A DNA stretch of 63,955 nucleotides, filler included, from Reclinomonas americana ATCC 50394 (Eukaryota), in the NCBI GenBank assembly GCA_048213135.1. It is 6 parts of 5 records of this genome, joined end to end, with 100 filler letters (N's around TTAATTAATTAA, not from the genome) between each part and the next. Parts side by side here need not be neighbours in the genome. Positions count along the whole stretch, not along the records: positions 14,709 to 43,561 come from PS015441.1; 5 more parts are not named here. One strand, written 5' to 3'. Below the pieces are notes generated by a model. That model was not told where the DNA came from, made no database searches, and saw only the letters and a program-made list of their open reading frames with translations. The position numbers were made by a program, and so were the translations under genes. This document shows, piece after piece, positions 4,204 to 62,728 of the stretch. The first letter of the stretch is position 1. Each line of letters opens with the position of its first letter.

Positions 4204-5235
4204 ATGGCCGGGCGCAGTGCACTCGACCTGCTTGAGCTCGAAGACGATGAGGTGTGTCTCTGTGCATGCGCGTGCGTGCATTGTCTGCTCACTCTCTCTA
4301 TATAGCGTGAGCCAGCGACCAAGAGACAGCGCACTGCTCGTGAGGAGGACTACGATGACGAGGAGGATGAGATGGCGGATGATGAGGATGAGGATGAGGA
4401 AGAGGTGCTTTGCCTGCTCCATATGTAAGAGAGGCCGTGCATTTGTTGAACCACTGTGTGTGTGCGCAGGGTCGTGGTGCGGGAGGTGTCGATGATGAAG
4501 AGGACGACTTCCTCCCGAGTGCGCTTGGTCCGTCGCGCTCGTCACAGGCCTCGGCGAGCGACTCAACAGCAGCCGCAGGAGGCGGAGGAGGAGGTGCAAG
4601 GTCAGTGAACACTCACATTGCAGTCACTGCAGGTGACTGATTGCNNNNNNNNNNNNNNNNNNNNTGTGCTGTGCTGCTCAGTGGTGCTGGTGGGGGAGGG
4701 TCGGACTCTGGCTCCGGCTCCGAGGACGAGGAGGAGAAGCGGCGAGAGCGTGTGCGTCGTCGGCGAATGAGAAAGGAGGCGTCGCGAGTGGGAGATGCCA
4801 GTCGAGTGGCGGCCGAGGCGGCGCGCAAGGCGGCGGTGACCGAACGCAGTCGTCTGTTGTCGCTAATGGACGCGGAGCAGCAGGATCGATACGAGAGCTT
4901 CTACCAGTCCAAGTTCGACCGTGGCACGGTGCGGCAGCTGATTCAGGGGTCGTTGAACACCAAGTCCAAGCTCAGCAACACCGTGCTGGCCATTATCGGC
5001 GGCTGCTCCAAGGTGTTGGTGGGCGAGCTGATTGAGGAAGGTGCGGTGTGCTTGCTGCGTTGTTGGTCCTTGATCGTGCCGCTCAACACTTGTGTGTGTG
5101 TGTGCGTGTGCAGCACTGGCGGTGCAGGGCCGGTGGAATGCCGTGGGCCCCCTGGAACCGGCACACATTCGCGAGGCGATTCGACGGCTGCGGCGGAAAC
5201 CCAACTCGCCGTTTGCCAGCAAGTATGCGCATTGA
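4204..5235 (+). CDS. TAF11: TFIID subunit TAF11 (acidic N-terminus plus histone fold)
   Basis: Spliced EQQDRYESFYQSKF...IIGGCSKVLVGELIEE|ALAVQ...GPLEPAHIREAIRRL matches the TAF11 (TAFII28) histone-fold signature. Confidence 0.85.
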
Positions 5236-9625: not shown

Positions 9626-11992
9626 TCATGCCTCGAAGGTGACGTTGAAGCTGCGCTTGACGAGGGAGCGATCGGGTGTGTAGTCGCCGGGTGCCACTGG
9701 TGCTCGGTTGCGCATCTCTCGTTCTCGTGGTGCGAAGCGGTCCTCCTGCGTTCATTGACACAAGGATTAGGCGAGGCAAGTTGCAATGGAACATTCGCTG
9801 GGGGGACGCAACTGTTGAGAGGAAGGTGTTGGGCTTGGTTGAGGAGACCTTGGGTATGGGTTGTGGCTCGTATGCGCCCGGTCCGGGTACAGCAGCTGCA
9901 CGGGAGTGAGAATGGCTGCGAGAGGGAGACAACTGTCGTGTCGCGGCGTACCCTTTGCCGAGTCCTTCGAGAAACGAGGTGCCGAGGCCGCGAATGCGTG
10001 ATTGTGTGTGAGTTCCCTGCGCGGCTTGGTGTCAAACGTGCCCGGCAGATCGTAGGCTCCCGGTGGTGGGGCCGCTGTGCGATCACCGCGCGTCAGCACA
10101 CAGCGCCAGACAACTCGGCACTCGAGACAAACACACAAACCATCTGGCTTGGCGGCAACCGGGTCGCGATGAGAGCGTGACGCGAATACAGCAGAGCGCT
10201 TGTCGCTTCGTCGCCGTGTGACTGGATCGATCTTGACAGGTGGGTCATACGAGGCCGGTCCCGGCTGCGTCACCACCTCGGCTGCAGGTCCTCGGAAGCG
10301 CGCTGTGGTCGACCCAAACACGCCAAAGCGACCCACCGCCTGTCGCGGTGCACTCATTGACATGCGAGGCTGCAGCAAGCACACGCCAAGGGTGAGCGCG
10401 GGATGGAAGGAGACAGCGAGAGACACCGACAACAACAAACCGCCATGCCATCCGTGTACTGTCCAGGTCCGGGAGCATCGCTGGGGCGATACACAAAACG
10501 TTGCGCAGCAGTGTCGAAGCCGGGGCGATTCTGTGACAACAGAAGAATGACATTGAGCGATGGCGGTGGGGGCGAAGAAGATGATGATGTGGACGGGGAC
10601 TGACCCTTGGTGGCGACAGGCCCGGAATGAGGTCGGCGTACGGCGCCATGTCCTTGGGCATCTTGATGGTGGTCGGCAGGTCGTACGCTCCCGGGCCGGG
10701 AATGTCGCGCACTTGTGAGCTGGCGCCCGGCAGGCGTTCCGAGTTGCTGCCAAAGTTCTGGAATGGTTGCGGCACAAACGAGCGGCGAATGGACGACTGA
10801 TAGTCGTAATCGCCTGGACCCGGCAGCTGCAAGCATCATCATGGCGACGTGGTGAGAGGGATGCAAAGAGAGGTGCAAGTCAGCCATCACACAGACGCAC
10901 CGCATTCTTCTGTCCCACCCAGTCGGTGCGCTTGGAGCCGGATGCAAACGCCGCGTGTGGACGATAGTTGACGGAAATGTTTTTCCGCAAATCCTTACTG
11001 GGATCGTATTCACCAGGGCCCGGCGTATGCGTCGCCACACCCGCCGTCTTGATCAGATCCGGCCGTGTGGTGGTCTTGGAAAAATCAGGCGCCGTTCGCG
11101 CATGCTTCACCGCATTCACCGCGTGCGCCGTATCATACTCGCCGGGTCCCACCGTGTCCACACCACGCCCTGCATGCCCCACCGTCGGCGGCTTCTGCAT
11201 CACCAGCTCACCACCCACACCTTCCTCGTAGCCATACGATTGCGATCGTGCGGGAATCGACGGTGCCGTGGCCACTGTGCGCGCACACGTGAGCACGTGT
11301 GGATCGACATGAGGAGTGGCTTGAGCAAGCGGCTGACCTTGCACCCAGTTGATCGCTGCACCGCCTGGTCTCCCTGCTCTCCCGCCTTGTGCGCTTGCCG
11401 TCGGCGCCGAGTGCGGCTTCTTCGGGTCGACCCACGGCTGCGACAAGTCATACGATCCCGGTCCTGCACAACAACCATGAGCCTCCTTCTTCCACTCTTT
11501 CTCTCACACACTTCTCTCTCTCTCTCTGCGCACCTGGTGTCCGCGACGGCTTGATCACATCGCGCGGCACCGCCGAGGAGAACACCGCCGAGGTCTGCAG
11601 ACCACTGCCACTTCCGCCCTTCTTCCCGCTCGCGTCAATCGTCAAATCGCGAGTGTACGCGCCCGGACCCGGAGTAAACGTGCTGCCCTCCATAAACCCA
11701 CGTCGTGTGGTGCTCGTGAACGGTGCCTGACTGAGAGAGAGAGAGTGAGTAGAAGATTGATTTCTCCTTTCCTTCTTTCTGCTCTTTCGCTTCTTCTTCT
11801 TCTTCTCGTGCTGTTGCTGCTTGTCTTGCTTCTGCTCGTGCTCCTCCTGCTCGTGCGTCTTCTCACTAAGAGTGAAGGAGTGAGACGCAACGCATGCTTC
11901 ACTTGATGATCCTTGGGCATCTCATAGGCGCCCGGACCAGGCGCGTGCACCTGTTGCGCATTGAACCGCTCAGAGCGCGTCGTGAACGCCAT
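9626..11992 (-). CDS. SHIPPO/ODF3-STPG2-like PGPG-repeat axonemal protein
   Basis: More than 10 PGPG(A/E/D/Q)Y repeats (PGPGAYE, PGPGEYD, PGPGDYD, PGPGQY), F-x-S-x-x-x-RF spacers and C-terminal KRSFNVTF. Confidence 0.85.
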
Positions 11993-14608: not shown

Positions 14609-14708
14609 NNNNNNNNNNNNNNNNNNNNNNNNNNNNNNNNNNNNNNNNNNNNTTAATTAATTAANNNNNNNNNNNNNNNNNNNNNNNNNNNNNNNNNNNN
14701 NNNNNNNN
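14609..14708. other. Artificial scaffold spacer (N44-TTAATTAATTAA-N44)
   Basis: The six-frame stop linker is at 14653-14664. Identical linkers lie at 43606-43617, 56397-56408, 58695-58706 and 62673-62684. Confidence 0.97.
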
Positions 14709-14761: not shown

Positions 14762-17649
14762 CACGCGCCGGCCAGTTCGCCACGCACGACCCCCACCAAG
14801 GCTGCGGGAAAGTCGGTTCTGTCGCCCACGTCGCCCACGTCACCCTCGGTGGCGGCCGCGGCAGCGGTAACCGCGGCGGCCACGGCTGCTGCGAAGCGAT
14901 CACGAGCACTGGTACTCTCGTCCGAGTCGCCAGCCAAGGGCACGTCTGCTCGTGGCGCCTCGAAGCCCTCGTCGCTTGCCGCCCAGTCGTCGCGTTATGT
15001 GGCACCGCCACGGCCACCACCGCCACGGCCACCACCACCGCCTCCTTCGTCGACATCGCCGTCGCCGTCGTCGCCGTCGTCGGCAGCAGAGGATGCGGCC
15101 AGGCTTGCTGCCTTAGCAGCGCGTCGGCCGCAGTTTTTGTATGACGACACCGCGCCGAGCAAGTACACGATGGTGCAGCCGCGTGGAGTGGCTGGCGATC
15201 CCAGTTCGAAAATGTACTACTCGCGCAAGGACAAGAGCCTCGGCACTTTGTGTGCACGGTGAGACGGCCGCCTGGGTGGCGTGCCACTCCTGTCGTTGCT
15301 CACACGCTCCCTGTTTTATTTCTGTTCTCCAGGTTTATCGGACACTATGGGCCCATGTTGGACCACGACATCTGCATTGATCGTGCAGCCACGATTCTTG
15401 GTGGGTGGTTCTCCCGCAGTTGTATCCGTTTCTTGTTCAGTTTGCTCACTTACTGCATAGGCGTTGAGCGGCGTCGAATCTATGACATTGTGAACGTGCT
15501 CGAGAGTATCGAAGTGGTGGTACGGATCGCGAAGAACAGCTACCGATGGAAGGGCTTGAGTGGCGTTGCTGGTGTGCTTCGGCGAATGGAGGTGTGTGGT
15601 GCTCTTTGATGCACTGCATTCCACAAAATACTCATTGTGCACGATGCCGTGCAGGATGAGGCGCAAGGCATGACGGATGCGGATTTCTTGGTGGCTGGTA
15701 CGAGCAGCACACGTGCGCGCGACATGGACTCCAAGGCCGCGGTGTGTGGCAAGCCAGGCGGCAAGTTGCGTGGTATGCACACGTCATGTCGCCTCCACAT
15801 TGCTAAAGTGCTGGAGGGGGCGGTCACAGTGAGGGTACAGATGGGACCAATGCCACGTTGTCGACAGCCGAGCCGCAACCAGTTCCGCCCATTTACTTAC
15901 ACCAGCATCACACGTGTGATGCTTGACACTGACCTGTGTGCACGCCTGCGCAGATATTCATGTCACCGGCGGTTGCTGGAGGTGCTGCTGCTGCTTCAGG
16001 GCCCTCGATCACGGTGCTCATGGCGTCGTCATCCTCGTCATCTGCGTCATCTGCGTCACCGTTTGCACCACTGGTCGCGGCGGCGAGCATGGCAGCGGCG
16101 AGCGAAGAGGAGCACGATTTTGACGTGCAGTCTGCGATCGGCGATGATGGAGATGGCCGACAGGGTGGTCGGGAAAAGTCACTGGGTTTGCTCAGCCGTC
16201 GCTTCATTCAATTGTTCTTGACGATGCCGCCGGCGAGGGTGCGTGCGTGCTTGAATGCGTAATCTATTCCACCGCCTGTGCTCATCATTGTCGTGCTCCA
16301 GAGGCGACCTCTCTCGCTCGACGTCATTGCACAGAAGCTGCTGGGCACACCCGTCAACCCCACGACCCAGGAGAAGCAATGTTGCGGTGTACCTTGTACG
16401 TGTCTGTTCACGACAGGCACTCACCCGTGTGCCACAGCCGCCAGCAAGATCCGCCGTCTCTACGATATTGCCAATGTCTTGTGCGCGGTCGTGATCATTC
16501 AGAAGACACACATTGACGGTGACGGAAGGAAACCGGGGTTTAGCTACTGCTTTCAGGAGCAGTATCTGCGTGCGTCATTCTTCCCCCCTCCGTGTCCAGC
16601 CAGTACTTTCTCTCACCCACCATTGCGTGTGCAGGTGATCCGCGTGAGCTTGCCGACATGGTGCTGGAGCGATTCGGGTTGATGTCCGCAAGCCGCAAGT
16701 CGCAGACGGCGCTGTCGTCCACCGGAGCGCCTGTTGGTGAGCTATCGCTTTGTGGATGATGGTGGCATGGAATAATGACACTCATTTTTTTCCTGTGATG
16801 ATGCAGTCAAACAGCAGGCATCTCCGGGACTCACCAGTGCGGTGGCTGCTGTTGCAGGTTCGGTAGTCGTTTGCCTGTTCCAAAGACAGAGTGCGCTGTG
16901 ATGCTCATGTCGGTTGAATACAGGCCTTCCCATGACCGGCGGGTTCATGCTCACACAACTCCTGGCGTCGTTGCCGCAACACAATGGTGGCAGTGCGTCA
17001 CTGCCGGCTGCTGCAGCGGCGGCCGCTGCGGCCGCCGTCATGTCGGCGGCTCGAAATTCCGTGGCGAGCACAACGACGACGACGACGACGACGACGACTG
17101 CCGCCACCTTCACGCAGCCGTCAGTGCCGCCTAATGCACTTGCACTGCTCGGGCCCTCCATTGCTGCTGCTGCGGCGGCGGCATCTGTGGCTGCGCGCCA
17201 GTCTACCACCAGTATGGCTCCACCCATGTCATCAACACAGCCGCTGCAATTGCAGACGCCGGCAGGTGTGTGTGCGTGTGTGCTTGACGTGGAGCACGTC
17301 TGTGTTGTGTGGGTGTCTCACCATTCGTCACAGCAGCTGACAATGCGGCACAACTGCGCGCCTACTTGGAGGCGCTTGCATCGTGGAATGAGCGTTGCGT
17401 TTGTCTCGTTGATGCCATGCGATCGAGTTCACGAAAGGAATGACACTGGTGGGTCGTGGTGCAGACTACAAGCGCGTTGTGCAGAGCAATAATGCAGCAA
17501 CAGCTCCCACTATTGCTGTTGCGTCGCCCAGCCTGCCAGCAGCTCTCCCTCCACCACCGCCACCACCACCACCACCACCACCACCACCACCACCGCCGCC
17601 GCCGCCGCCGCCGCCAGCACTAGATAGCGGCTACCCATATGCGAGATAG
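14762..17649 (+). CDS. Atypical E2F transcription factor with two DNA-binding domains (E2F7/8/DEL-like), 5'-partial
   Basis: DBD1 YSRKDKSLGTLCARF...GVERRRIYDIVNVLESI...YRWKG and DBD2 REKSLGLLSRRFIQLFL...KIRRLYDIANVL. Ala/Thr/Pro low-complexity tail. Confidence 0.9.
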
Positions 17650-17672: not shown

Positions 17673-20600
17673 TTATGTTCTAGGTGACCTGTGGCGTCGC
17701 CGGCGATGCGTGTGCGAACGAGAGCTCACACTTGTGCTCGCATCGTCCGACGGAGTCACGATAATGTTTTCTTCAGAGGCACGCGGGAAGGTGATGAGCT
17801 CGGTTCTCGCGGCCGTCGAGAGCTGCCGCGGAAAGGAAACGGAAGAATGAGAAACAAAAAGTCGGCGCCTCGCTGTGCTGTGCGTGCTCTTCGTACGTAC
17901 CTCGAGGAAGTTGTGCACGCGCCCTCGCTTCTTCTCGTCGCGCGTAAAGGCCACCCGCACCAGCTCGCCAGTGGACTGCGTGCGGAAGTACACAAAGGCC
18001 TGCTGGCCAGTGGCCCGCAGTCGGAGCATTTCGTCGTTCGTGAGGCACGGTTGGTCGTCGGCTGTGAGCAGGTGAGAAATGAGAGAGGGGAAGGGGGGTT
18101 GTACATGTGGCAGAACGGCAGGACGCACTGTGTGGCAGCTGCTGCGTGGAGTCGGCTATCGCTGCGTGCTTGGCTGGCACGTGGAAGAAAGTTGACCGAA
18201 TGGCTTGCCGCGTCTTGCGGCCCTTGTAGGCGGCCTGAATGTATGTGGCGGCAAAGTACTCGCCACAAAAGTATCGCGGACTCGGCAGACTCTGAAGTGA
18301 GGGGAAGGCGCGTTTCCAGATGCGCTCGTGATGTCGCCGTGTCCTCTCCGGCAGAATGATCTTGAAGACCTTGCGGGCCAGTGGGATCAGCGTCTCTACA
18401 AAGTGGATGACGCCGCCGCGGTCGGGAATGTCGAGCGACACCATCTTTCGGATGACAAGTGCGCGGCCGACATCCTTCTCCAGACCCAGTGGCTCGCCGA
18501 GTTCCGCCAACAGTGCTTTAAGTTGGCACTGAAGATCGGAACTCAATCAGCGCACTGCGATACAGACGGAGATTGGTCGCAAGGCTGCTGTTGCACGTAC
18601 CGTGGGAATCAAGTGGGTGGCTCCAGGATCAAACTTGGCCCACACCTCGATGAATCTAGTGACGACGCGAGTGCAAGATATAAGTACACGAGGAGGGGAG
18701 CAGTGAATGTGAAAACTGGTGCATTAATGGGGAGTGGGACACACCGGAACAAGTCGTCGGATTTCAGAGGGCTCTCCTCGATGCGCATGGTGTTGTAGAA
18801 CTCGTCGAGAATGACAGCAATGAACAGATTGGTCATCACAAACGAGCCGATCAGCATGAATGTGACGAAAATGAGCCAGGCCCACGAGGTTCCACAGTTG
18901 CCCTGCACACCACAATGGTGAGAATGCAATTGATGGGAAAAGCTCGCGACAGCAACGCCAACGAAACCAGATCATTGCTGCACGTCGGTGGTTCCACCAT
19001 GCAGTCACGCATGATGCCGTTCCAGTTTTCACCAGTACTCATGCGCAGCAGCGTAAGCATGGCCACTCCAAAGGTCTGCAGGGGTGCATGCGGTGAGACG
19101 TCGTGTGGCACATGTACCGACAGCTTCGCAGACGCAACTGAGAAATTCGCGTGCTCACTGAGTGCAGCGCCATCCTTCACGTTCCAGAACAGGTTCACGC
19201 ACAGTACGGCGTACATGAAGAACAAGAGGAACAGGAAGGTGCCGACGTTGAACAGGGACGGAATGGCGTAGTAGATGGTCTGGCAGTGAGGCACAACACA
19301 TTGAGAGAGTGAATGGTCGGTCAGCAGTCGCGCACAGAAGATCTCCTCTACGCACCTGCAACAACAGCCGCACACTCTTGGCGCTCTTGAGGAGACGCAA
19401 GATGCGCACAAGGCGGAAACTGCGGAACACTCGCAGAATCGACGGCTGCAGTGCTGCTGTGGTGAGCATCTCGGCCAGCAGGCCGAACCACGACAAGGCC
19501 AGAATGATGAAATCAAACGTGTTCCACGGGTCGCGGAAGTACCTGTTGAGGGGTGAGTGAGAGGCAGCACACACATGTTATGTCAGTGCAGGTGTGCAGG
19601 AAACGCACCCACGCGGCGAGTTGCCAATCATCTTGAGTGCCGCTTCGACGGTGAAGATGACGGTAAAGATGAGATTCACCATTTCCAGAGCCTTGTCGTA
19701 CGAGTCGGGGGATGGATAGTGCTCGGTCATCATGGCGATAATGTTCAGTACCAGCAAGACCGTGACCTGCGTGGCAAGAAAAAATAAGCGTACCACATCG
19801 GTAGCAGAGGGTGATGCGTGGCGTAATTGCTTACTCAACAATGGCTTCAAACACGACCGAGCTGACGATGCGATAACAGAAGAGGCGGATTGGGTTTTTC
19901 GGTGGCTGTGGTCGGAAGATTGGTTTGAAGTGCATAAGCACTCGCTCTGTTTCCTGCCACTCTTGCTGGGCCTGTGTACAGACACACATGCACAACAATA
20001 AGAGAGGGGAGCGACACAGCAAACTGTGTGCGTCCGTGATCGAACCGGTGTCAAGAACAGTAAGCCATCTAAATCGGATTTGACGCGGTTGAAGTTCCGG
20101 ATGATGACTCCGACCAGCAGATTCATGACAAAGAAGGCACCAACGACAATGAAGCCCACGTAGTACAGTCCCATGTACGGTCGATTGTTGAGTTGTGGAG
20201 CCACGCCGACGCCTGTAAGCACACGCATGAGAAGCATGAATGGCACTCAAACGGTACCTGCCAGCAAGACTCACCGACTGAATCAATGCCGCGGTACATG
20301 TGCAGAGGCCAGCCCTCCAGTGTTGACAACTCAAACAGCACTATGCCATGCAATATCAGCGAGTGAAGGGTATAAGAGAAGAGTTAGCACGTTGCGGCAC
20401 ACCGAGGATAGCGTTGAGAATGTTGTCAAAGTTGCCGTTGTCGGACACCCACAGTCGTGTGGCTACCAGCCCGTCGCTGTCGATAAAAGTTCCCACGCAC
20501 GCCTGCGAGGGGATTCATTGTCAGCAACATCTACCGGCACTGATTGTGATGTACGGCACCACACGCACATTCAAGGTCGTGATGTCGGGATCGGTGCACT

Positions 20601-23600
20601 GGTAAAAGGTGCCGGCAAAGAACTGCACGCCCACAATGCCAAACAGCAAGTAGATGATACCGGCCACGATCACGACATGCCCAATGTACGGGATTGCACC
20701 GAGAAGCGAAACCACCACGATGCGAAGACCTTTGGATCGCGACAGCACACGCAGAGGTCGAATGACTTGGAATAGACGGAGCTAGTCAAAGGCCAGCAAC
20801 ATGTTGAGCACATGGCGACAGTATGAATCGAATGTGCAAAAACAATACTTTCTTCGTACCGACTTCAGAGAACTGATGGCCGATGAGCTGGCCACCTCCG
20901 TAATCACCGACACGATGAGGATGAAAAAGTCAAGCACATTCCACGGTTGGCGTAGATATGTAGTCTGTGTGTGGCCTGTTAGCAAGCAGTTCACCACACC
21001 TTTGCATGTATCTGTAGAGATTGTGTGGTAGTAACCTTGCCCGACACAAAGCCGAGGGTGATGATCTTCGCCACAGCCTCCACAGCAAAAATGACAAAAG
21101 TCACTTCGTTGAGTATCTGCAGAACTACGTACCGCTGTGGCAAACAACATTCAGAATGCATGCCATCCAGCTGCAGACCACCGTTGCACGTAACAGTGGA
21201 GGTAATGGACAGATTCGGATGGTCGATGGCGAGACTGGCGCTGCTGACCAGAATCGCCATGACCACAATGAACTCGAACAGTTTCGAGAATGTCAGTCGG
21301 CCAGCAAGGATGCGAATCAAGTTGTCCTTGCTCAAGAAGCCCAGTGACAATTCTGCGACCGGGGAAATAGCGTAAGGTGAGTTTCTCAGTGCTTTTCTCT
21401 TCCCAGCATAGACATTGTGTGAAGCGCGGTGACCTTCCAAGTTGGCGAACTCTTTCGGCCTGCGATATAACCATCATGGGTGTAAGTTTCAACAAACGTC
21501 GCTGGAGCAACTTGTTTCATGCGGCGGCCGACGCAACGCTCGTGAGCCGTTCTCGCCCACCTCCAAGCAACAGAATGTGTCCACACATCGACGACTGCAA
21601 TCACATCCGTGAGTTAGCTACAACGAACGATACATCGCGTGCCACAACTGCACATACTTGGAGCGCAGGGCATCGACACTCGGTCCACGAATGAGGAGGC
21701 CGTCGACCTTCTGCTTGAGGTCGCTCGGCAAACTGCCCTCGTGCTGCAATTGTTGCGAGATGGCCCGCACATTGACGACGGCCGATTCTGAGGGCGACGT
21801 TGACAAGGCAACAGAACTGCTGCGACTGCTGCGACGATCGACCGGCGGTGGTGGCGGCGGCGGGCTCTTGCGAGCAACACTGGAGGCTGATGAGCCCGCA
21901 TCTTGTGACAGTCGAGAGTGTGGAGATCGATCTGCAGCACTGCTGCCTGCTTCGCTGTCTTTGCCGGATGGCTTGCCTGTCACAGGCGCGTCAGGAACGG
22001 ATCGCGGTGACGAAAACTATGGGTGGAGAGACGGGCGCAACTCTTGCTGGCCTTTCGCGTGCCTGGTGATCGCAGTTTGCTGAGCTGCTGCTGAATCCAC
22101 TCTGTGGACTTGTTCGCAGGATCGTTGTCTTGCACAAACATGGACCGTATGCCGCCGGTATGCTGGCGGCCCTCCCCCTCGCCAGCATCGTCTTCGTCGT
22201 CAGACCAGCCGACGGTGTCGGATTCGCCACTGCCCGCGCTCTTCTCTTCGTTGTCGTCCTGATCTCCATGTCGTTTGTGAGTGCACGCGCACAAACAACT
22301 GCGTGGATGCCAGTCAGTCAATCAGCATGTTAGGAAACTGAAAAATTGAGCAAAGCTACACACCCACACCACCGCGGTCTGGCGTGCTGTTGTGCTTCTT
22401 GGACCTTGAGGTAGCCGAGAACCGGGTCGAACTCATCCGCTGGCGACTCGGTCGAGTCGTCTGAAGACTGCATTGCACTCGAGTGGTGAGTATGTGAGCA
22501 CAAAATGAAGAAGCTTGCGTGCGTACCTCTGACTCATCAAAGAGGGCACCGACAGAGCCCTCGGAGGACATCTCATCGGAGAGATGTGAACGGGCATCGG
22601 CATCTGCATCGCCCTCATGATTGTGAGAAAAGTCGAGTGTGAGAGATCTTGTGATGCACATGTACGCACCAGAATGAGCCGATGCGGCCTGAGCTAATCG
22701 CATGCTGCGTCCGCGAGGCAGATCGCTCGTCAGGCCACGCTGACTTCGCCAGCTGGAGTTGTGCAACACTTCTTCCACGTCGCCGGCTGCTGCCAACAGT
22801 CGCTGACGCGAGAGGCTGCGTAGAGGTGCACCGGCCGATACTGCAACACAGGTGGTGTGTGAGTATTTTGCAGCAGACTCCCCTCGCGATAGATCTATAC
22901 CTGTTGACAGTGAGTTGTCAGAACTGGGTGCCACAGCTGGCGAACGCCGCCGCTTCTTTTGCGGCTTGATCGAGAATCCTTTCTTGCCGAGCACCGATTG
23001 CTTTCGCATGCGGAACAACAGCGCAGCCGGGTGGATGCTATCACCGCTCACTGCACAACAGGTAATGGTTGGATTGATGATTGATTGCTGCATGTGCGCG
23101 CAATCGACGTAACTTGTCTGCAGATGTGGCACTGCACCGGGGGTGGCAGTGACTTCTGGAGTGCTCTTGCCCTCCACAGTGACTTCTGGAGGCGGTTTCT
23201 GCAGTCACGGGTAAAGGCGATGATGAGCTCATTGCGCAGTCTGTTTCGTTCGATGGGCAGCAGCAGCGGACGCACCTCAGCCTCGGCATCCTGATTCTCT
23301 TTGGTGGCATCGATCTGGGAGTCTGTGCTCGATTGTTTAGCGACAAAGGGAGAAAGACAGACAGACAGAGAGAGAGAGAGAGAGAGAGAGTTTGACGACG
23401 ATCCGCACCGTTTACATGCGAGATAAAAGAGAAGCGCAGCTGCGGAGCTTGAAGGAAAATCAACGAATCCTCAGTACTGCACGATGAATCGGTGCTGTCT
23501 TGTTCACCGTTGTCGTTTTCGCCCTTGCCCTTCCGAGCCTCCTCCTGCACATGACGCGCAGGCAAGTGAGTCGAAGCTTGCGTGCTCAGCACGTGCGACT

Positions 23601-26600
23601 ACACAGCAAACCCTCTTCTCCTTCTTCTTCTGGCGCTCGTCAAAGCTTCGGATGAGAATGGCGAGGAACAGGTTGAGAAGAATGACTGCGATGAGCCGGA
23701 GGAAGTTAAGGAGGTCAGACCAGCACGGCAAATCGACAATAACAGGCAGCAATCAAAAAAGGATACAGTTGCCAAAGACCACCACCGACACAAAGAAAAT
23801 GGACGAGACGACGCCGGCTGCATTCATGCCCTTGGTGAGAACATCGTTCCAGTTCTCGCTGGTGATGAGCTGGAACACCGTCAACGAGGCCCACACAAAA
23901 TCATTGAAGCTGGCCCGGTTGCTGCTGACATTGGGGTCCATGCTGGTGCCAAAGACCTGCATGCCTGCGCGTGTGCATGCCAGAGAGAGTCAGCAATTAA
24001 CACATCACCACGATATAGACTAAATTTGAGTAGCTGCCACGTACCGATCAGAGCAATGACGAACAAGAACAGCAAGATGACCAAGCTGAGGTAGCCAATG
24101 TTGATAATGGCCTTGGTGATGATTTTCATGACACCATTCAGACGAGTGGCACTCCTGCGGATTGATAATACAGCAGCACGCGTCAGCTCGGGGAGACAGC
24201 GGTGCATCAGGAAACAGTGCTCAACTTGAACAACTTGAAGATACGAAGCACGCGGAGTGAGCGCAACACGGAGAAACCGAATGTCCCTCCATCCGGGGAC
24301 GTGATGGAGAGATCAATAATGCTGACGATGACAACCACACCTATTGCGCCAGTCAACACGAGGGGTAAAAAATGACAATGAGCGCTCTTGCAGCAGACGT
24401 ACCATCAAAGATGTTGAAGGTGTAATTCAGATAGTCTCGTACTCCCATGGCGTACACCTTGAGCACCATCTCACAGACGAAAAACACAGTAAAGGTCACG
24501 TCGCCGGCATCTGTTCGGCGTAGTGAGCGCTCAGTGTACACACATGAGCACGCCGCATGTTGTTGTCTGTCACACTCACCGAGAATGGACTTGAGTATCT
24601 TCGGCATGTTGTAGTATTGCAAGGCGAGAGCAAGAGTGTTGAGGAGAATGACGGCAAGTACCGTGCGCCCGAACCACTTGTTGGCCACAAAGCGCATAGT
24701 TAGCGCTCGAGAGGCAGTCCAGAAGCGCCGCAGTAGACCGGCGGTTGGCTGCTGCAGGGGCGTCGCAGGTCGTCGAGCAGAAACGGGCGGCTCGTCATCC
24801 AAATTTGTCGGCGTCACCGCCACACGCACGCTGCGAGTACGCGGCCTCTCGTCCGCATCAGCCACAGCACTCTGTGGGGCTACGACCTGGCTCAGCGACT
24901 CCAGCGACTCCTGCGACGCACGTCTCTCGAGCTTGTCGCCGACGCCATCCAGCGATTCACACACATCCATGTCCTCCAAGTCGGAGTCGTCTTCGTACTC
25001 GTCACGTTGTCGGCGACACTGCGCAGCATCGTGACAAGACAGAGAGTCAGACTGTTAGAAGAAGCAAGGGCGAACGGCAAGGTGTGGATGGATGGACGCA
25101 CACGACCGACGCATGCCGAGATGAACTCGGCAGTCTTGTCGTAGATGCGCACAACACAGTTACGGGGTCGTCGACCACGGTCGAATTCTCCTCTGGCACC
25201 ACCATTGTTGCGCCCGCTGTCGCCTTGTGCGTTGTCACCGAGAAGGTTATTCCTGCTGGCGTCGAGATCACGCAGACTGATCTTGTGAATGACAAAACCG
25301 GGAATGCTGCGCACGACGCATCAGTGATTAACAGGTTGCAGAAGGCGTGACAACGACGACATGCATCCGCACCCTGTGGCGTCCGACGCCACGCTCATCT
25401 CGCTCCTATGTGAAATGTAAGTGATGCGATACAAAGCAACCAGAGTACGAGTTGCGCTTACGACGGACCCTCGGCGCGCGCTGTGTATCTGACTCGCATT
25501 GCTGGCCTCCCGAGTCATGAAACTGTGCTGCGAGCCCATCATGTGTGAACGCGAAAGCGCCGCACTGCGATGCCGATTGTAGAGGGTACTGTGGCGGTAC
25601 GCAATAAGACCAGTCAGCACATCGCAAGGACATGTGCAAAAAGAACTAATGTATCTGTATGACGAACTTCATGCGTAGCCGTTTCTGTTTCTCGTCGATT
25701 CGCGTCTGATTGCGCAGGAACCTGTCGTTGATGACAGCCAGAGCCAAGTTGAGGATGAAGAATGCACCGAAAATCACGACCACGATGAAATAGATGCAGG
25801 CGTATGGATTCCAAGCGTCTTGCGTCTGCGCACGTTAAGATACGACGTGAGATCGTGACACAATGTGCTGCGCCACTGCGTGTTTGATTGCCAACGCAAC
25901 AGCATACATCACGTCGGACCAGCCCTCGAGAGTGATGCACTGGAAGATGGTCAGCACGGCCCAGCCGAGGTTGTCAAAATTGGTGTACCCTGAGTTCGGA
26001 GCGATGCCGACCGAGATGCACGTGTGGCCACCGGGACACGCGTAGCCGGTGCCGTCCACGCTGCACAGTTGATCGACTCCGAACAGGTTGCCTGTGCGTA
26101 AAGAGCATGCGTTGTGAGCTGTGGTGCACCGCCACGCGGAAGGGAATATACCAGAATGGGCGCCAGGGACGCACCATTCGCATCCACGCATCGGTACTGC
26201 AGCATGCCTTTCCACAACTGCACGGCCAGCGTGCCAAAGATGACAAAGAACAGGCACGCAAGTCCAAGCACATGGACGAGTCGAGGCAGCGATAGCAGGA
26301 TGGAGGACACAATCACTTTCAGCCCTGCAATGCCAAAAACAAAGAGAGCGTGAGAGGACTGCGACGATACCCCCAAAAAAACGTGGGCACACATCATCGT
26401 GCACCTGGAATGGTGGTAATGGTGCGCAGTGGGCGCAGTACACGAAGTGTGCGCAACACGGTGAACGACCCAATGCCCGGCAGCTGGCCAATCCAGCCCA
26501 CCGCCACAATGGAAAAGTCCATAATGTTCCACCCGTTTCGCAGATACGCGCCAGGGTGTGCCACAAATCCGAGAACCGACACCTAATCATCGCAAACTCA

Positions 26601-28052
26601 GCACGCAGAAAGGAGGAGAGAAGGAGAGGGAGAGAGACCTTGATGAGCATCTCCACAGTGAAGATGGAGTTGAACACGAGCTCCGAGATTCGCGAAATCG
26701 CTCTGCATCCACCAGTGTTGGTTTTTGTGGTCAAGGGTCAATGACGTGCGCTCGACCACTGCGACGCAACGACGACGAGTCTTGGGGAGAGCTCGAGGGG
26801 CTGTCCATAGCCAAGAACACGCAGTTGAGCAGAATCACAATCATGATCGTCCTGTCGAACCACGTAATGGCAGCAGCACGCAGGAGTCAAGGACACACAC
26901 ACAAGGAGGCCAGTCAACAAAAGAAGCAAAAGAGAAACAATGAAGGATATTTGTTGCGCATAATGTCGGCCAAGAACAGACGCAAGCCGTTCTCTGGGCC
27001 GAGGCATCCCAGAGCCCGCGAGTCCATGGCCCTGGCGAATTCTGCGTCGCTGCCGGCCTGTGTATGTGTGTGTTCTTCGTCAATCACGTGTGACACAGAT
27101 CGACAATCGCGCACGCCAGCGTACCTCACTCGAGTCGATAGCAGAGATGAGAGACACATCGCCAGAGGTGCATGAGGTGATGGAGTGGCGCGGTTGCATC
27201 GGGTTTCTCGCTCCTCCATCTGGCGTCATAAAGCCACCCAATGTGGGCAGTGCACTCACTGCGACGCGATCCATCGGTGGCTGCGAAAAGTGACGCAACG
27301 CCGCAGGTGTTTCGGTGGCAGGAGACGCCGCTGCGACGGGGCTGGCGAGGGCCGGCGAGAGCGGATGCGGCGCAGTGTCTTCAGGCAGGAGCACAATGGC
27401 GGGCACACCGGTGGTGAGCAGCGCATTCCCGCCGCCGCCGCCGCCGCTGCCGCCGCCGCCACCACTGGTGGGCATGTGACGTGCACTGCGCCGAAACGAC
27501 ACTGACCGCCCGCTCCCGCCAGCAGTCATGGGCGACAAGAGTGAACTTGGCGCCAACGCGAGTGGTGGTTGTGGCGGCAGCGGTGGTGGCACCAAGAGCG
27601 CTGTGCTATCACCACCCCGACTGCTGCCCACTCGTTCCGCACCATACGCATGCTGCTGCTGCTGCGGCTGCTGCTGCTGTGTTGTCGGTGGCGTCGCTGC
27701 TCTGTTCACCAGTGGATTACGCAGCGCGCTGGGACGTGCACGAGCCGACAGAGGCACACCGAGCGCGCCCTCGCGTGGACTGTTGCCCGCCGACAATACT
27801 CGTTGCGCTGGTGCGATGGGCGACTGATGCGTGGACGTGTGTGTGTGAGAGAGAGAGAGAGAGAGTGTGTGTGCGTAAGTCTGAACATACTGCTGTGCAT
27901 TGATGATGCCTTTGCCCACTCACCTGCTGCTCAGTGCTCTCACTCGGCGACGGCAACGACAATGGAGGCACCGCATGGGGCAGTGGTGGTGGTGGTGGTG
28001 ATGGTGATGGTGGTGGTGTTTCACCCCCTCCCGAGCGGCGCGGAGACGACAT
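17673..28052 (-). CDS. Four-domain voltage-gated calcium channel alpha-1 subunit (EEEE filter, EF-hand-like region and IQ motif)
   Basis: P-loops [27 protein letters not shown] and [10 protein letters not shown]4 helices [33 protein letters not shown] and [15 protein letters not shown]6 helices end in NLFLAIL and [11 protein letters not shown] motif [13 protein letters not shown]. Dozens of short introns; the start at 28052 is inferred. Confidence 0.93.
23686..23766 (-). other. U12-type GT-AG intron (81 nt) in Cav domain II S6
   Basis: Donor GTATCCTTTT, branch TCCTTAAC (23705-23712) and acceptor CGCAG. Removal gives [16 protein letters not shown]. Confidence 0.92.
26864..26950 (-). other. 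U12-type AT-AC intron (87 nt) just before Cav domain I S1
   Basis: Donor ATATCCTT, branch TCCTTGAC (26886-26893) and acceptor TTAC. Removal gives [24 protein letters not shown]. Confidence 0.93.
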
Positions 28053-43509: not shown

Positions 43510-44221
43510 GTTGCGTCTGTCTCACAGCGTCATTCGCTATCGTCGTGCTCACATAAGGCGTNNNNNNNNNNNNNNNNNNNNNNNNNNNNNNNNNNNNNNN
43601 NNNNNTTAATTAATTAANNNNNNNNNNNNNNNNNNNNNNNNNNNNNNNNNNNNNNNNNNNNCATCCATCATTCATCATCAATGCACGCACGCACAGTGTC
43701 CGTCACTCACCAAAGAACATACAAGGGATGACGGGGGCCGGCGGTTTCGAGAAGGAGGTGGCACAAAGGCAGAGAGAGAGAGAGCGGAACACTCACTCAC
43801 AGAACACTTGTTGCTCGGGGAGAAGGAGCACACAAACGCACGCGCGTCGAACTTAATTAACGACGCACCGCGGGGAGAGACAGAGAAGAGAAGAAGAACA
43901 CCAGTGTCTTCTCTCTGTTATTAATAAACGCTTTCTTCGTCACACACTATGCCAGTGTGTGTGTAGGAGAGAGCGGAACGGACAACAACTGTGACGCGTG
44001 TGCAATGTCACCACGCGCACACACGAAAAACACAAGAGGGAGGAGAGGGCACACAGAGGCGAGGAATGGAGCAGGTCTCGACAAGCTGCAGGGTATCACA
44101 CAGAGAGCAACAGACACACACACAAAGAGGTGGGGCTATTATTGGCTCAGAGACGCAAACAACGATAAAGGTAATAGCTTCTGTAAACCTCGTCTACATA
44201 AAAACATCGCACACCGTTTTT

Positions 44222-48402: not shown

Positions 48403-50835
48403 ATGGCCGCTGAGGATCAATTCCGCCAGTCTATGGCTGGTGTGCTGGCATCGTCGCCCGTCGACACTGCTGGCGCCGCCATGCTCCAAGTTGCGTGTGT
48501 GTGTGTGTGTTCGCGCGCGGGCAATCGCCCCCCTCCTCTCTCNNNNNNNNNNNNNNNNNNNNTCCGTCCTCCTCTCCTCCCTCCTCTCTCTCTCTCTCTC
48601 TCTCTCCACCTCTTTCCCGTCACTGCGTGTGCGTGTCTGCGTCTTCACTTTTGTTCAGTTGTCTCGAGATGTCGCACCATCTCTCGCTCTCTTGCTCTCT
48701 TCTGTGCGCCACGCACCTCGTGAGTTGCTCCCCACCCTCTGTCCCCGTGCCTTTCCTTCCCGCCCGCCATCTGCTGCCTTGCGAGGAGAGAGATTCCTTT
48801 CACTTGTTGCTGCTGGTGCTGACGTGTTTGTTTTCCGGTCAGACGTGGACCACGTCAACGTGGAGGTTTGTCTTGGTGTCTCTGCGCTGCTCATTGTGTG
48901 TTTCCGAGATCTCACTTCAACTTTGACCAGGAATACGGTTTGACCACGCAAAAGATTTTCCGCAATGCCTCCGTGCCTGTGCTCTACGAGCAGGCGTTGC
49001 AGCGCGAAAAGGTGCGTAAAGACAGGCAGCCGCTCTGCGTCTGTCTATACTCATCCCCCCCGTTCTGTTCGCAGGGCTCCTACATGACCAGCACTGGTGC
49101 TCTGATCACCCGTTCGGGTGCGAAGACTGGCCGCTCGCCCAAGGACAAGCGCATTGTCGAGGAGCCGTCGACCAAGGAGGACGTGTGGTGGGGCCCCGTC
49201 AACATCAAGCTCGACGAGGCGTCGTTTTTGATGTTGCGTTTCTTTTCATCTGCAAGGGTGTGCATCGACAGCTGCATGCATGCTGACCTGTGGTATTGCA
49301 GTAACCGCGAGCGCGCCATTGATTACCTCAATACGCGCGACCAGTTGTACGTGTTTGACGGCTACGCCGGGTGGGATCCCGTGTACCGCATCAAGGTGTG
49401 TTCCCTATATTTGTTGCATCCTCTTTCTTCCCGCTCCTCCCCTTCCCTTCCTCACCCCATCGCCCAGATCCGTGTCGTCTGCGAGCGTGCCTACCACGCC
49501 CTGTTCATGCACGACATGCTGATCCGCCCGACTCGTGAGGAGCTTGCCGATTTTGGTGAGCCCGACTACATCATCTACAACGCCGGCGCCTTCCCCGCCA
49601 ACCGCTTCACCAAGGGCATGACGTCGTCGACATCGGTGGCCATTCATCTCGGCCGCCGTGAGATGGTCATTCTCGGCACGCTGTACGCCGGCGAGATGAA
49701 GAAGGGTGTGTTGACGATTATGATGTACCTCATGGCCAAGTTGGACGTGTTGCCGCTGCACTCGTCAGCCAACGAAGGTGTGTAATTGTGCTGTGTTGCT
49801 TTCACTTTCTCTTCCCACTCATTGCGATCACCGCCCTCGTGCAGGCCCCGACGGCACCACCACTCTCTTCTTTGGTCTGTCGGGCACCGGCAAGACCACA
49901 CTGAGTGCCGATCCGCACCGCAAGCTCATTGGCGACGATGAGCACGTGTGGACCGACGGTGGCATCTTCAACATTGAGGGCGGCTGCTACGCCAAGTGTG
50001 TGGACCTCACGCACGAGAAGGAGCCGGAGATTTTCGATGCGCTGCGCTTTGGTGCTGTGCTGGAGGTTTGTCGCTCACGCGCAACATCATCATCACGTGT
50101 GCGGAGTGTATTTGTTCCTCATCCGCGCGCACACAGAATGTGGTCTTTGACGAGCACACTCGCCTGGTCGACTACCACGACATCTCCATCACAGAGAACA
50201 CGCGTGCTGCGTACCCGCTGGAGCACATCCCCAACTGCAAGATCCCCGCCATTGGCCAGCACCCGAACAACGTCATTCTGCTCACCTGCGACGCTTTCGG
50301 CGTGTTGCCGCCGGTGTCGAAGCTGACGACGGCGCAGGCCATGTACCACTTCATCAGTGGCTACACTGCCAAGGTGGCCGGCACTGAGGTCGGCATCACC
50401 GAGCCGGAGGCCACGTTCTCTGCTTGCTTTGGCGAGCCGTTCTTGGTGTGGCACCCGACCAAGTACGCCGAGATGTTGGCGCAAAAGTTGGTCACATACG
50501 GCGCCCAAGCGTGGCTGCTGAACACGGGCTGGGTCGGAGGCTCGTACGGCGTCGGACGCCGTTGCTCGCTCAAGTACACGCGCGCCATGGTCGATGCGAT
50601 TCACTCGGGCGAGTTGGCCAACCAGGAGACGGTGGAGAACGCCATCTTTGGTCTGCACGTGCCGAAGCACTGCCCGAATGTGCCCGACGAGATCCTGCAG
50701 CCGCAGATGATGTGGAGGGACGTGACGGCGTACGACGCCACCCTCACTCGTCTGGCTGTGCGCTTCATCGAGAATTTCAAGAAGTACGAGGATCGCGCCT
50801 CGGACGAGATTCGTGCCGCCGGCCCGCGCTTGTGA
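48403..50835 (+). CDS. PCK1: Phosphoenolpyruvate carboxykinase (ATP-dependent)
   Basis: [69 protein letters not shown] and FSACFG. About 9 exons. Confidence 0.98.
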
Positions 50836-56134: not shown

Positions 56135-56452
56135 GATGGATGGTGGTGGTGGTGGTGGTGGAGTGCGAAACAGAGCAAACAACTAAACAAACAAACAAAA
56201 AACTGCGGAGGGGGGGGGGGGATGCAGAGCGCAGCAGGGTGTGAGCTCCAAAGGGCAACGTGTATGTGTGTGTGTGTTAACGACAACAACCGCACAGCGC
56301 AACACACCTGCTTGTAGGAGACGCGGGCCACGAGGTAGTTGCCGACGCTCCGNNNNNNNNNNNNNNNNNNNNNNNNNNNNNNNNNNNNNNNNNNNNTTAA
56401 TTAATTAANNNNNNNNNNNNNNNNNNNNNNNNNNNNNNNNNNNNNNNNNNNN

Positions 56453-58650: not shown

Positions 58651-58750
58651 NNNNNNNNNNNNNNNNNNNNNNNNNNNNNNNNNNNNNNNNNNNNTTAATT
58701 AATTAANNNNNNNNNNNNNNNNNNNNNNNNNNNNNNNNNNNNNNNNNNNN

Positions 58751-62628: not shown

Positions 62629-62728
62629 NNNNNNNNNNNNNNNNNNNNNNNNNNNNNNNNNNNNNNNNNNNNTTAATTAATTAANNNNNNNNNNNNNNNN
62701 NNNNNNNNNNNNNNNNNNNNNNNNNNNN

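Follow-up and report, generated by a model that had tools for sequence, protein, structure and literature searches.

The 63,955-base stretch of joined DNA analysed here (the window) encodes a four-domain voltage-gated channel that appears to be interrupted by two introns of the minor, U12-dependent class, one of them an 87-nt AT-AC intron at the start of segment S1 of domain I (the D1S1 intron), the other a GT-AG intron in segment S6 of domain II (the IIS6 intron). The first of these was proposed in an earlier note on this DNA. Judging from sequence and position, we consider that the D1S1 intron is very probably a genuine U12-type AT-AC intron and that it and the IIS6 intron were probably inherited from an ancestor shared with the channels of animals. 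Common inheritance of both is the most likely explanation because codon and phase equal those mapped for animal introns, at D1S1 in a voltage-gated sodium (Nav) channel and at IIS6 in a voltage-gated calcium (Cav) channel of the Cav2 group; in animals the D1S1 intron occurs in Nav, Cav1, Cav2 and Cav3 genes and the IIS6 intron in Cav1 and Cav2. Both introns probably predate animals.

Splice signals and boundaries of the two introns

Positions are those of the joined window, and the channel gene is read on the minus strand. The D1S1 intron and its surroundings comprise the following features:

26864..26950, minus strand: U12-type AT-AC intron at the start of domain I S1, 87 nt, phase 2
26943..26950, minus strand: donor ATATCCTT, preceded by exon bases CAA
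26886..26893, minus strand: branch-site motif TCCTTGAC, with 26887 as the presumed branch A
26864..26865, minus strand: AC acceptor, the first and sole AC or AG 3′ of the branch site
26951..27057, minus strand: exon 5′ of the intron (pre-S1, ending + AA), placed by frame, splice sites and homologue alignment
27124..27058, minus strand: GT-AG intron before the pre-S1 exon, from the splice sites read and the intron table
26777..26863, minus strand: exon 3′ of the intron (G + S1), in which the Ion_trans match starts at W

The upstream exon ends ..GAC ATT ATG CGC AAC AA and is followed by the intron start ATATCCTTCA..; the branch region reads ..TGTGTCCTTGAC, with 22 bases after the motif that end ..CCATTAC, and the downstream exon begins G TGG TTC GAC AGG ACG ATC ATG.... 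From branch A 26887 to the last intron base is 23 nt. The donor and branch-site 8-mers each show no mismatches to the consensus (/[AG]TATCCTT and TCCTTRAC, respectively). The U12 donor, the branch site ~22 nt from the end and the AC acceptor described in the earlier note are all present within 26864..26950, and its assignment to the AT-AC U12 class is upheld: every sequence hallmark is there and the boundaries fit the homologues. Phase-2 removal joins AA|G to give Lys, followed by Trp-Phe-Asp-Arg (WFDR) of S1, and an intron kept in the reading brings in-frame stops. The top PDB match of the S1 exon is the Cav3.1 stretch WFERISMLVILLNC. The 3′ end of this exon is ambiguous, with several in-phase donors at 26776-26760, and the end given above comes from a rough dynamic-programming (DP) model.

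One metagenome scan provided 72 loci encoding relatives of the exon that covers segments S3-S4 of domain I, and the D1S1 junction was compared with these by means of the spliced pre-S1/S1 peptide of 64 residues. Matches upstream of IS3-S4 were obtained at 49 of the 72; 29 cross the junction, 28 of them without a gap, and locus L019 has a two-residue insertion there. At the junction, L017 reads ..YNKWFDRLILL.. (LVYNKWFDRLILLTILTNCVFLA), L013 ..VRWRWFDRIILM.. and L001 ..IKNKFFDKTILF... Most of the remaining 20 S1-matching loci are, by eye, open through the site. The D1S1 boundaries are validated by this gapless alignment of the spliced product to its homologues, and the proposal that phase-2 removal restores the protein is confirmed against 28 uninterrupted homologous loci. 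Enumeration of every in-frame GT/GC-AG and AT-AC pair gave 33 candidates, with a single GT-AG pair that keeps the protein length, 26938..26852 (87 nt; product ..RNKYPSL-TIMIV.., in which WFDR is replaced by YPSL); the other canonical pairs lose 7-13 or more conserved residues. The earlier claim that no GT-AG alternative restores the protein holds as worded, the in-frame pair existing but destroying the conserved WFDR.

The IIS6 intron lies further along the same gene:

23686..23766, minus strand: U12-type GT-AG intron in domain II S6, 81 nt, phase 1, splitting GN|F
23766-23759, minus strand: donor GTATCCTT, 0 mismatches
23712-23705, minus strand: branch site TCCTTAAC, 19 nt before the acceptor
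23767..23964, minus strand: exon for domain II S5-pore-S6, to ..VVVFGN + T, from Pfam and structure matches

Its junction reads ..GTC TTT GGC AAC T|GTATCCTTTT..CTCCTTAAC, followed by 19 nt ending ..CGCAG|TC ATT CTT CTC AAC... The acceptor AG is the earliest AG or AC 3′ of the branch site, the tail holding no other, and the branch A lies 20 nt from the acceptor. Here too the intron kept in the reading gives in-frame stops, and the spliced product is gapless across the junction at 25 of 27 metagenome loci, some of which may be matched through other domains; L037, L041 and L056 read the same 13-residue sequence as the product after splicing. No U12 donor was found at the IIS6 site in the related metagenome loci. 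That one gene carries two introns of U12 type strengthens the case for a minor spliceosome in this organism as well as that for homology.

Counts of the motifs bear on the possibility of coincidence. RTATCCTT occurs twice in the 63,955 bases, both strands included (0.55 expected; 9 of 100 shuffles reach two), and both copies are on the coding strand of the channel gene, at exon ends. A composite pattern, in which the donor is followed by TCCTTRAC and this motif, within 6-28 nt, by the next AC or AG, is also found twice. Over 400 Markov-1 simulations it averaged 0.005 occurrences; 2 simulations contained at least one and 0 contained two or more. Within a rough 21-intron model of the gene, the D1S1 and IIS6 introns are the only ones free of mismatches at both the donor and the branch-site 8-mers, the other 19 having at least three donor mismatches and at least one branch-site mismatch. 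A search of the whole window with relaxed motifs produced no further U12 candidates except one weak match in a TC repeat.

By the established U12 pathway, U11 small nuclear RNA (snRNA) would pair with donor ATATCCTT and U12 snRNA with TCCTTGAC, leaving A26887 bulged, the two acting jointly as a small nuclear ribonucleoprotein dimer (di-snRNP) that recognises donor and branch site together. U4atac/U6atac.U5 would join, U6atac would replace U11, and A26887 would attack the donor; ligation at the first AC, 23 nt downstream, would then create AA|G, the Lys codon before WFDR. The cis elements and the exact product of this scheme are observed, splicing itself being inferred. The pair of introns predicts that the organism keeps a working minor spliceosome.

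Correspondence with channel introns in animals and other lineages

The phenylalanine of WFDR aligns to F133 of Nav1.5 (chain 8vyj_A, 2016 residues), and the codon split in the window therefore corresponds to residue 131. In SCN5A the donor of minor intron 3 is c.392+1 (the variant described being c.392+3A>G; PMC13602164). Base c.392 is the second of codon 131, that is, phase 2, equal in codon and phase to the D1S1 intron of the window. The alignment of position and phase with the animal intron is thus a match, to codon 131 of Nav1.5/SCN5A in phase 2.

Donor 12-mers that include three exon bases have been tabulated by Olthof et al. 2019 (PMC6717393, supplement file 1). At D1S1 the SCN genes have [CT]TC|ATATCCTTT (an ATATCC start), CACNA1G, CACNA1H and CACNA1I have CCC|ATATCC and mouse Cacna1a has GCC|ATATCC, whilst mouse Cacna1s and Cacna1f have GAA|GTATCC, that is, a GT-AG intron at the D1S1 site (PMC6717393). 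The published SCN and CACNA1 triplets agree with a phase-2 intron in the codon that precedes [L/W/P]-F, and the minor intron that the earlier note named at the start of domain I S1 in animal Nav and Cav genes is borne out by published donors that fit the site. The animal intron (SCN5A intron 3, CACNA1G/H/I) has AT-AC termini and a ATATCCTT[CT] donor in common with that of the window. In human CACNA1G, nine intronic donor bases are identical to those of CAA|ATATCCTTC in the window (PMC6717393), and human CACNA1G, CACNA1I, SCN5A and SCN9A have the same branch site, TCCTTGAC. The window intron differs from its mammalian counterpart in its length (87 nt rather than kilobases), in its non-animal host and in having its branch site 22 nt from the acceptor.

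For IIS6 the comparison is with the calcium channels. Rat Cacna1c contains two minor introns, introns 2 and 13 (PMC8767276), and the seven human high-voltage-activated CACNA1 genes (A/B/C/D/E/F/S) carry the donor ACT|GTATCCT (PMC6717393). Human CACNA1C and CACNA1E share all 12 of 12 donor bases with the window, ACT|GTATCCTTT (PMC6717393). The animal site was mapped for CACNA1A only, the other six genes being compared by donor triplet. The second minor intron of CACNA1A occupies hg38 chr19:13303614-13303766 on the minus strand (PMC6717393, supplement file 8), and the variant c.2039_2040delAG of NM_001127222.2 corresponds to hg19 chr19:13414645_13414646delCT, p.Gln680 (PMC9416002). Two tables put the start of the spinocerebellar ataxia type 6 (SCA6) repeat at 13318673 and at 13207859, giving a build offset of 110,814, with which the exon before the minor intron ends at hg19 13414581, that is, at c.2104, where codon 702 has its first base. 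Chain 8x90_A of Cav2.1 has the Q of KSQ at residue 723 and the Y of GNY at residue 745, a spacing of 22 residues. This chain is 43 residues longer than what we take to be native Cav2.1, so that a tag offset of 43 is assumed. From c.2104 and the KSQ-GNY spacing, codon 702 is therefore the Y of GNY, split in phase 1 as is GN|F in the window, and the triplet ACT (AAC + T) agrees independently with this mapping. The codon itself differs, the window splitting Phe (T|TC) and the animal intron Tyr (T|AY).

Three further kinds of arrangement were met at or near the D1S1 point among the metagenome loci. L015 starts with CCCCAAAA repeats (CCCCAAAACCCCAAAACCCC) and has TAA and TAG codons within its conserved frame; we take CCCCAAAACCCCAAAACCCC to be the telomere repeat of spirotrich ciliates, and the locus looks like that of a ciliate. 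Its positions 671-786 read GAA TGG AA|GTAAGT..TACTAATAGTTATATAG|G TGG TTC GAG, with GTAAGT..TACTAAT..TATAG over 116 nt, which is probably an intron of U2 type that shares the D1S1 position, codon and phase alike (..YLTEWK-WFERWVLFVIFLNS..; AA|G, then WFER). L045 and L046 have a U2-type acceptor 3 nt upstream of the D1S1 point. At L033, an animal-like Cav1 locus, positions 4243-4262 read TTTTCCTTGAC GAAACTTAC|CGA CCA TTT GAG (CGACCATTT), with a branch site and an AC acceptor. From these loci, with their offsets at L033 and at L045/L046, the D1S1 site is seen as old but imperfectly fixed.

Two side observations belong with these loci. A ATATCCTTT donor is present at L033 2775-2783, ~1.5 kb upstream of the acceptor, after a 36-nt candidate mini-exon (..MTQSS). 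The U12-like donors seen at L006 and L008 fall in coding or unrelated sequence and were discarded.

The host gene and the rest of the window

The extent of the channel gene, and of its tail domain, is as follows:

17773..27225, minus strand: host gene, four-domain voltage-gated channel, minimum span, from Ion_trans sets, tblastn and a rough exon model
18550-18723 and 18208-18546, minus strand: halves of the GPHH domain, from Pfam

At its 5′ end the gene probably extends into an open reading frame running to 27919. Along the stop-to-stop frames from ~27.9 to 17.8 kb, matches to Pfam Ion_trans fall into four consecutive groups, and tblastn of the 150 relatives found for one channel exon (best identity 36-44%) matches the window at 18-27 kb only. 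The homology-weighted exon chain has ~20 or more short introns (41-126 nt) and is a rough model, which omits linkers, leaves some in-frame introns in place and has more than one choice for several donors. In its translation the pore loops are TLEGW, TSENW, TLEGW and TGENW, corresponding to an EEEE filter. In the tail, an intron divides the GPHH domain between two exons that score 25.6 and 13.1 bits, each under the Pfam cut-off of 26.8, and the tail also shows an IQ-like motif and a weak match to the proximal C-terminus of Cav2.2 (E = 0.43).

Signals of subfamily are mixed. Two exons rank the solved structures in the order Cav3 > Cav2 > Cav1 > Nav > NALCN, the exons thus being nearest Cav3, whilst the GPHH domain and IQ-like tail are as in Cav1/Cav2 and the intron pattern is Cav1/2-like. 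Our call on these similarities is a Cav-like four-domain channel, placed in no animal subfamily. Amongst the other predicted introns of the gene the commonest donors are GTG[ACG]. A GT-AG intron at 26325-26404 (minus strand, phase 1) lies directly after ..TITTIPG at the end of IS4; in vertebrate SCN genes, too, two exons presumably meet at this ..IPG|L.. point.

Other products encoded in the window are an ATP-type PEPCK, HOP/STI1, Spt4, RPN13, an H-lectin and ankyrin and WD40 proteins. For the ATP-dependent PEPCK (at least three exons, 48823-50835, plus strand) the best relative is 81% identical, followed at ~75% by bacteria, blastoclad fungi and transcriptomes, and for HOP the best relative is 44% identical, with matches mixed among algae, animals and fungi. 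Two E2F_TDP winged-helix domains in neighbouring frames at 15145-16679 (plus strand) suggest an E2F7/8-like gene. E2F genes are a family rich in minor introns; no U12 donor motif was found in the E2F_TDP region 15145-16679. SHIPPO (sperm-tail PG-rich) repeats at 10248-11503 (minus strand) suggest that flagella or cilia are built. Runs of N at 14609-14708, 43562-43661, 56353-56452, 58651-58750 and 62629-62728 are 44 + 44 pairs with 12 bases between, and N totals 4,584 in the window, larger N blocks included; the report's author took them to be, presumably, repeats that had been masked or withheld. Taken from these genes, the host resembles a non-animal eukaryote from a thinly sampled lineage and is probably flagellated. 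To label it a protist, on the grounds that it has no close relative and a gene content unlike that of animals, is reasonable but unproven.

Competing explanations and evolutionary meaning

Several observations weigh against a shared U12-type origin. No minor snRNA gene was matched at Rfam gathering score, in a search that covered the 64-kb window only. In mammals the optimal distance from U12 branch site to acceptor is ~11-13 nt, and both spacings here (23 and 20 nt) are longer, so that the branch sites sit only loosely close to the 3′ ends. The triplets CCC, GAA and GCC alone do not fix the phase of the Cav introns, and the mapping of the CACNA1A intron makes two assumptions, that the hg19-hg38 offset stays the same over ~96 kb and that the 2-bp deletion is not shifted in alignment. 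The U12 acceptor at L033 is displaced 2 nt upstream and is apparently in phase 0, and at least 28 of the 49 protist-like loci, some of them perhaps transcripts, are intron-free at D1S1. At L015, reading under code 6 leaves the frame 5′ of WFER open from an in-frame ATG, so that an intron-less start is possible; we favour the intron at this locus because a frame is open from ~96, by the telomere-like end, through small GT-AG introns.

These points bear most directly on the idea that the two are real U12-type introns but arose separately at proto-splice sites (AAG|G and ACT|T) or were in some other way not co-inherited, which we regard as unlikely. AAG|G is a classical proto-splice site, where parallel gain is possible, the 28 or more S1-matching loci without a D1S1 intron leave room for it, and the offsets of 2 nt (L033) and 3 nt (L045/L046) indicate a neighbourhood that tolerates differing intron positions. 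Against it, both of the two minor introns match the animal ones in codon and phase, and in subtype too: AT-AC at D1S1 as in SCN, Cav3 and mouse Cacna1a, and GT-AG at IIS6 as in the seven human high-voltage-activated genes, with 12/12 donor identity. U12-type intron gain is, moreover, regarded as very rare, which counts against independent acquisition, as does the finding that U12-type introns keep their positions better than major introns do (PMC8767276).

Removal by the major spliceosome of the in-frame GT-AG pair 26938..26852, with the U12-like motifs a coincidence, is very unlikely: such a pair is present and preserves both frame and protein length, but it would remove the W-F-D-R for which homologues and Cav3.1 have WFDR, FFDK, HFDK or WFER, its donor (GTTTCT) is unlike the commonest GTG[ACG] donors of the gene, and it would leave unexplained a perfect donor and branch site and their recurrence in a second intron. 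It is also very unlikely that the intron is not removed at all, as at a pseudogene or retained-intron locus, given that four domains, pore glutamates and tail are intact over ~20 exons and that retention yields stop codons. The same low probability covers removal of an AT-AC intron through the major spliceosome, as happens with the second AT-AC intron of SCN genes. U2-type AT-AC introns do occur in sodium-channel genes, with like termini but spliced by the major spliceosome, and they have G at +5 (PMC2831892); the D1S1 intron has C at +5 (ATATCC) together with a U12 branch site.

A shared origin with the animal introns thus remains the reading that we prefer, and the homology suggested in the earlier note is supported, as deduced from the match of codon and phase and from the second U12-type intron. 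Minor splicing is missing from some protists (e.g. Monosiga) and present in others (PMC2846911), and minor introns of the same class as the window pair are recorded in Acanthamoeba, Physarum, Phytophthora, some fungi and Protostelium (PMC2846911, PMC10639083); human minor-intron positions are conserved in distant lineages, with, for example, 11% shared with Protostelium aurantium (PMC10639083). We consider it possible, if somewhat doubtful, that both introns were already in the four-domain channel gene of the most recent shared ancestor of this lineage, animals and ciliates, at or near the last ancestor common to eukaryotes (LECA), in which case the L015 intron would be a converted, U2-type one.

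The D1S1 intron and its conservation are already known for animals, and the channel minor introns are a classic conserved U12 case, described only for animals in the literature searched. No report of either intron outside animals was found there, nor any description by domain of the IIS6 minor-intron site, though prior descriptions are possible in both cases. For gene annotation, predictors limited to GT-AG introns will mis-model S1 of this gene. For the channel family, the presence of both animal-type minor introns in a eukaryote without a close sequenced relative would push their origin back before animals, and two dated introns would serve as a marker for reconstructing the diversification of four-domain channels. 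If the ancestor was at or near LECA, the pair would rank with the oldest introns that can be traced one by one, and the four-domain Cav architecture, together with its intron positions, would be dated to that ancestor.

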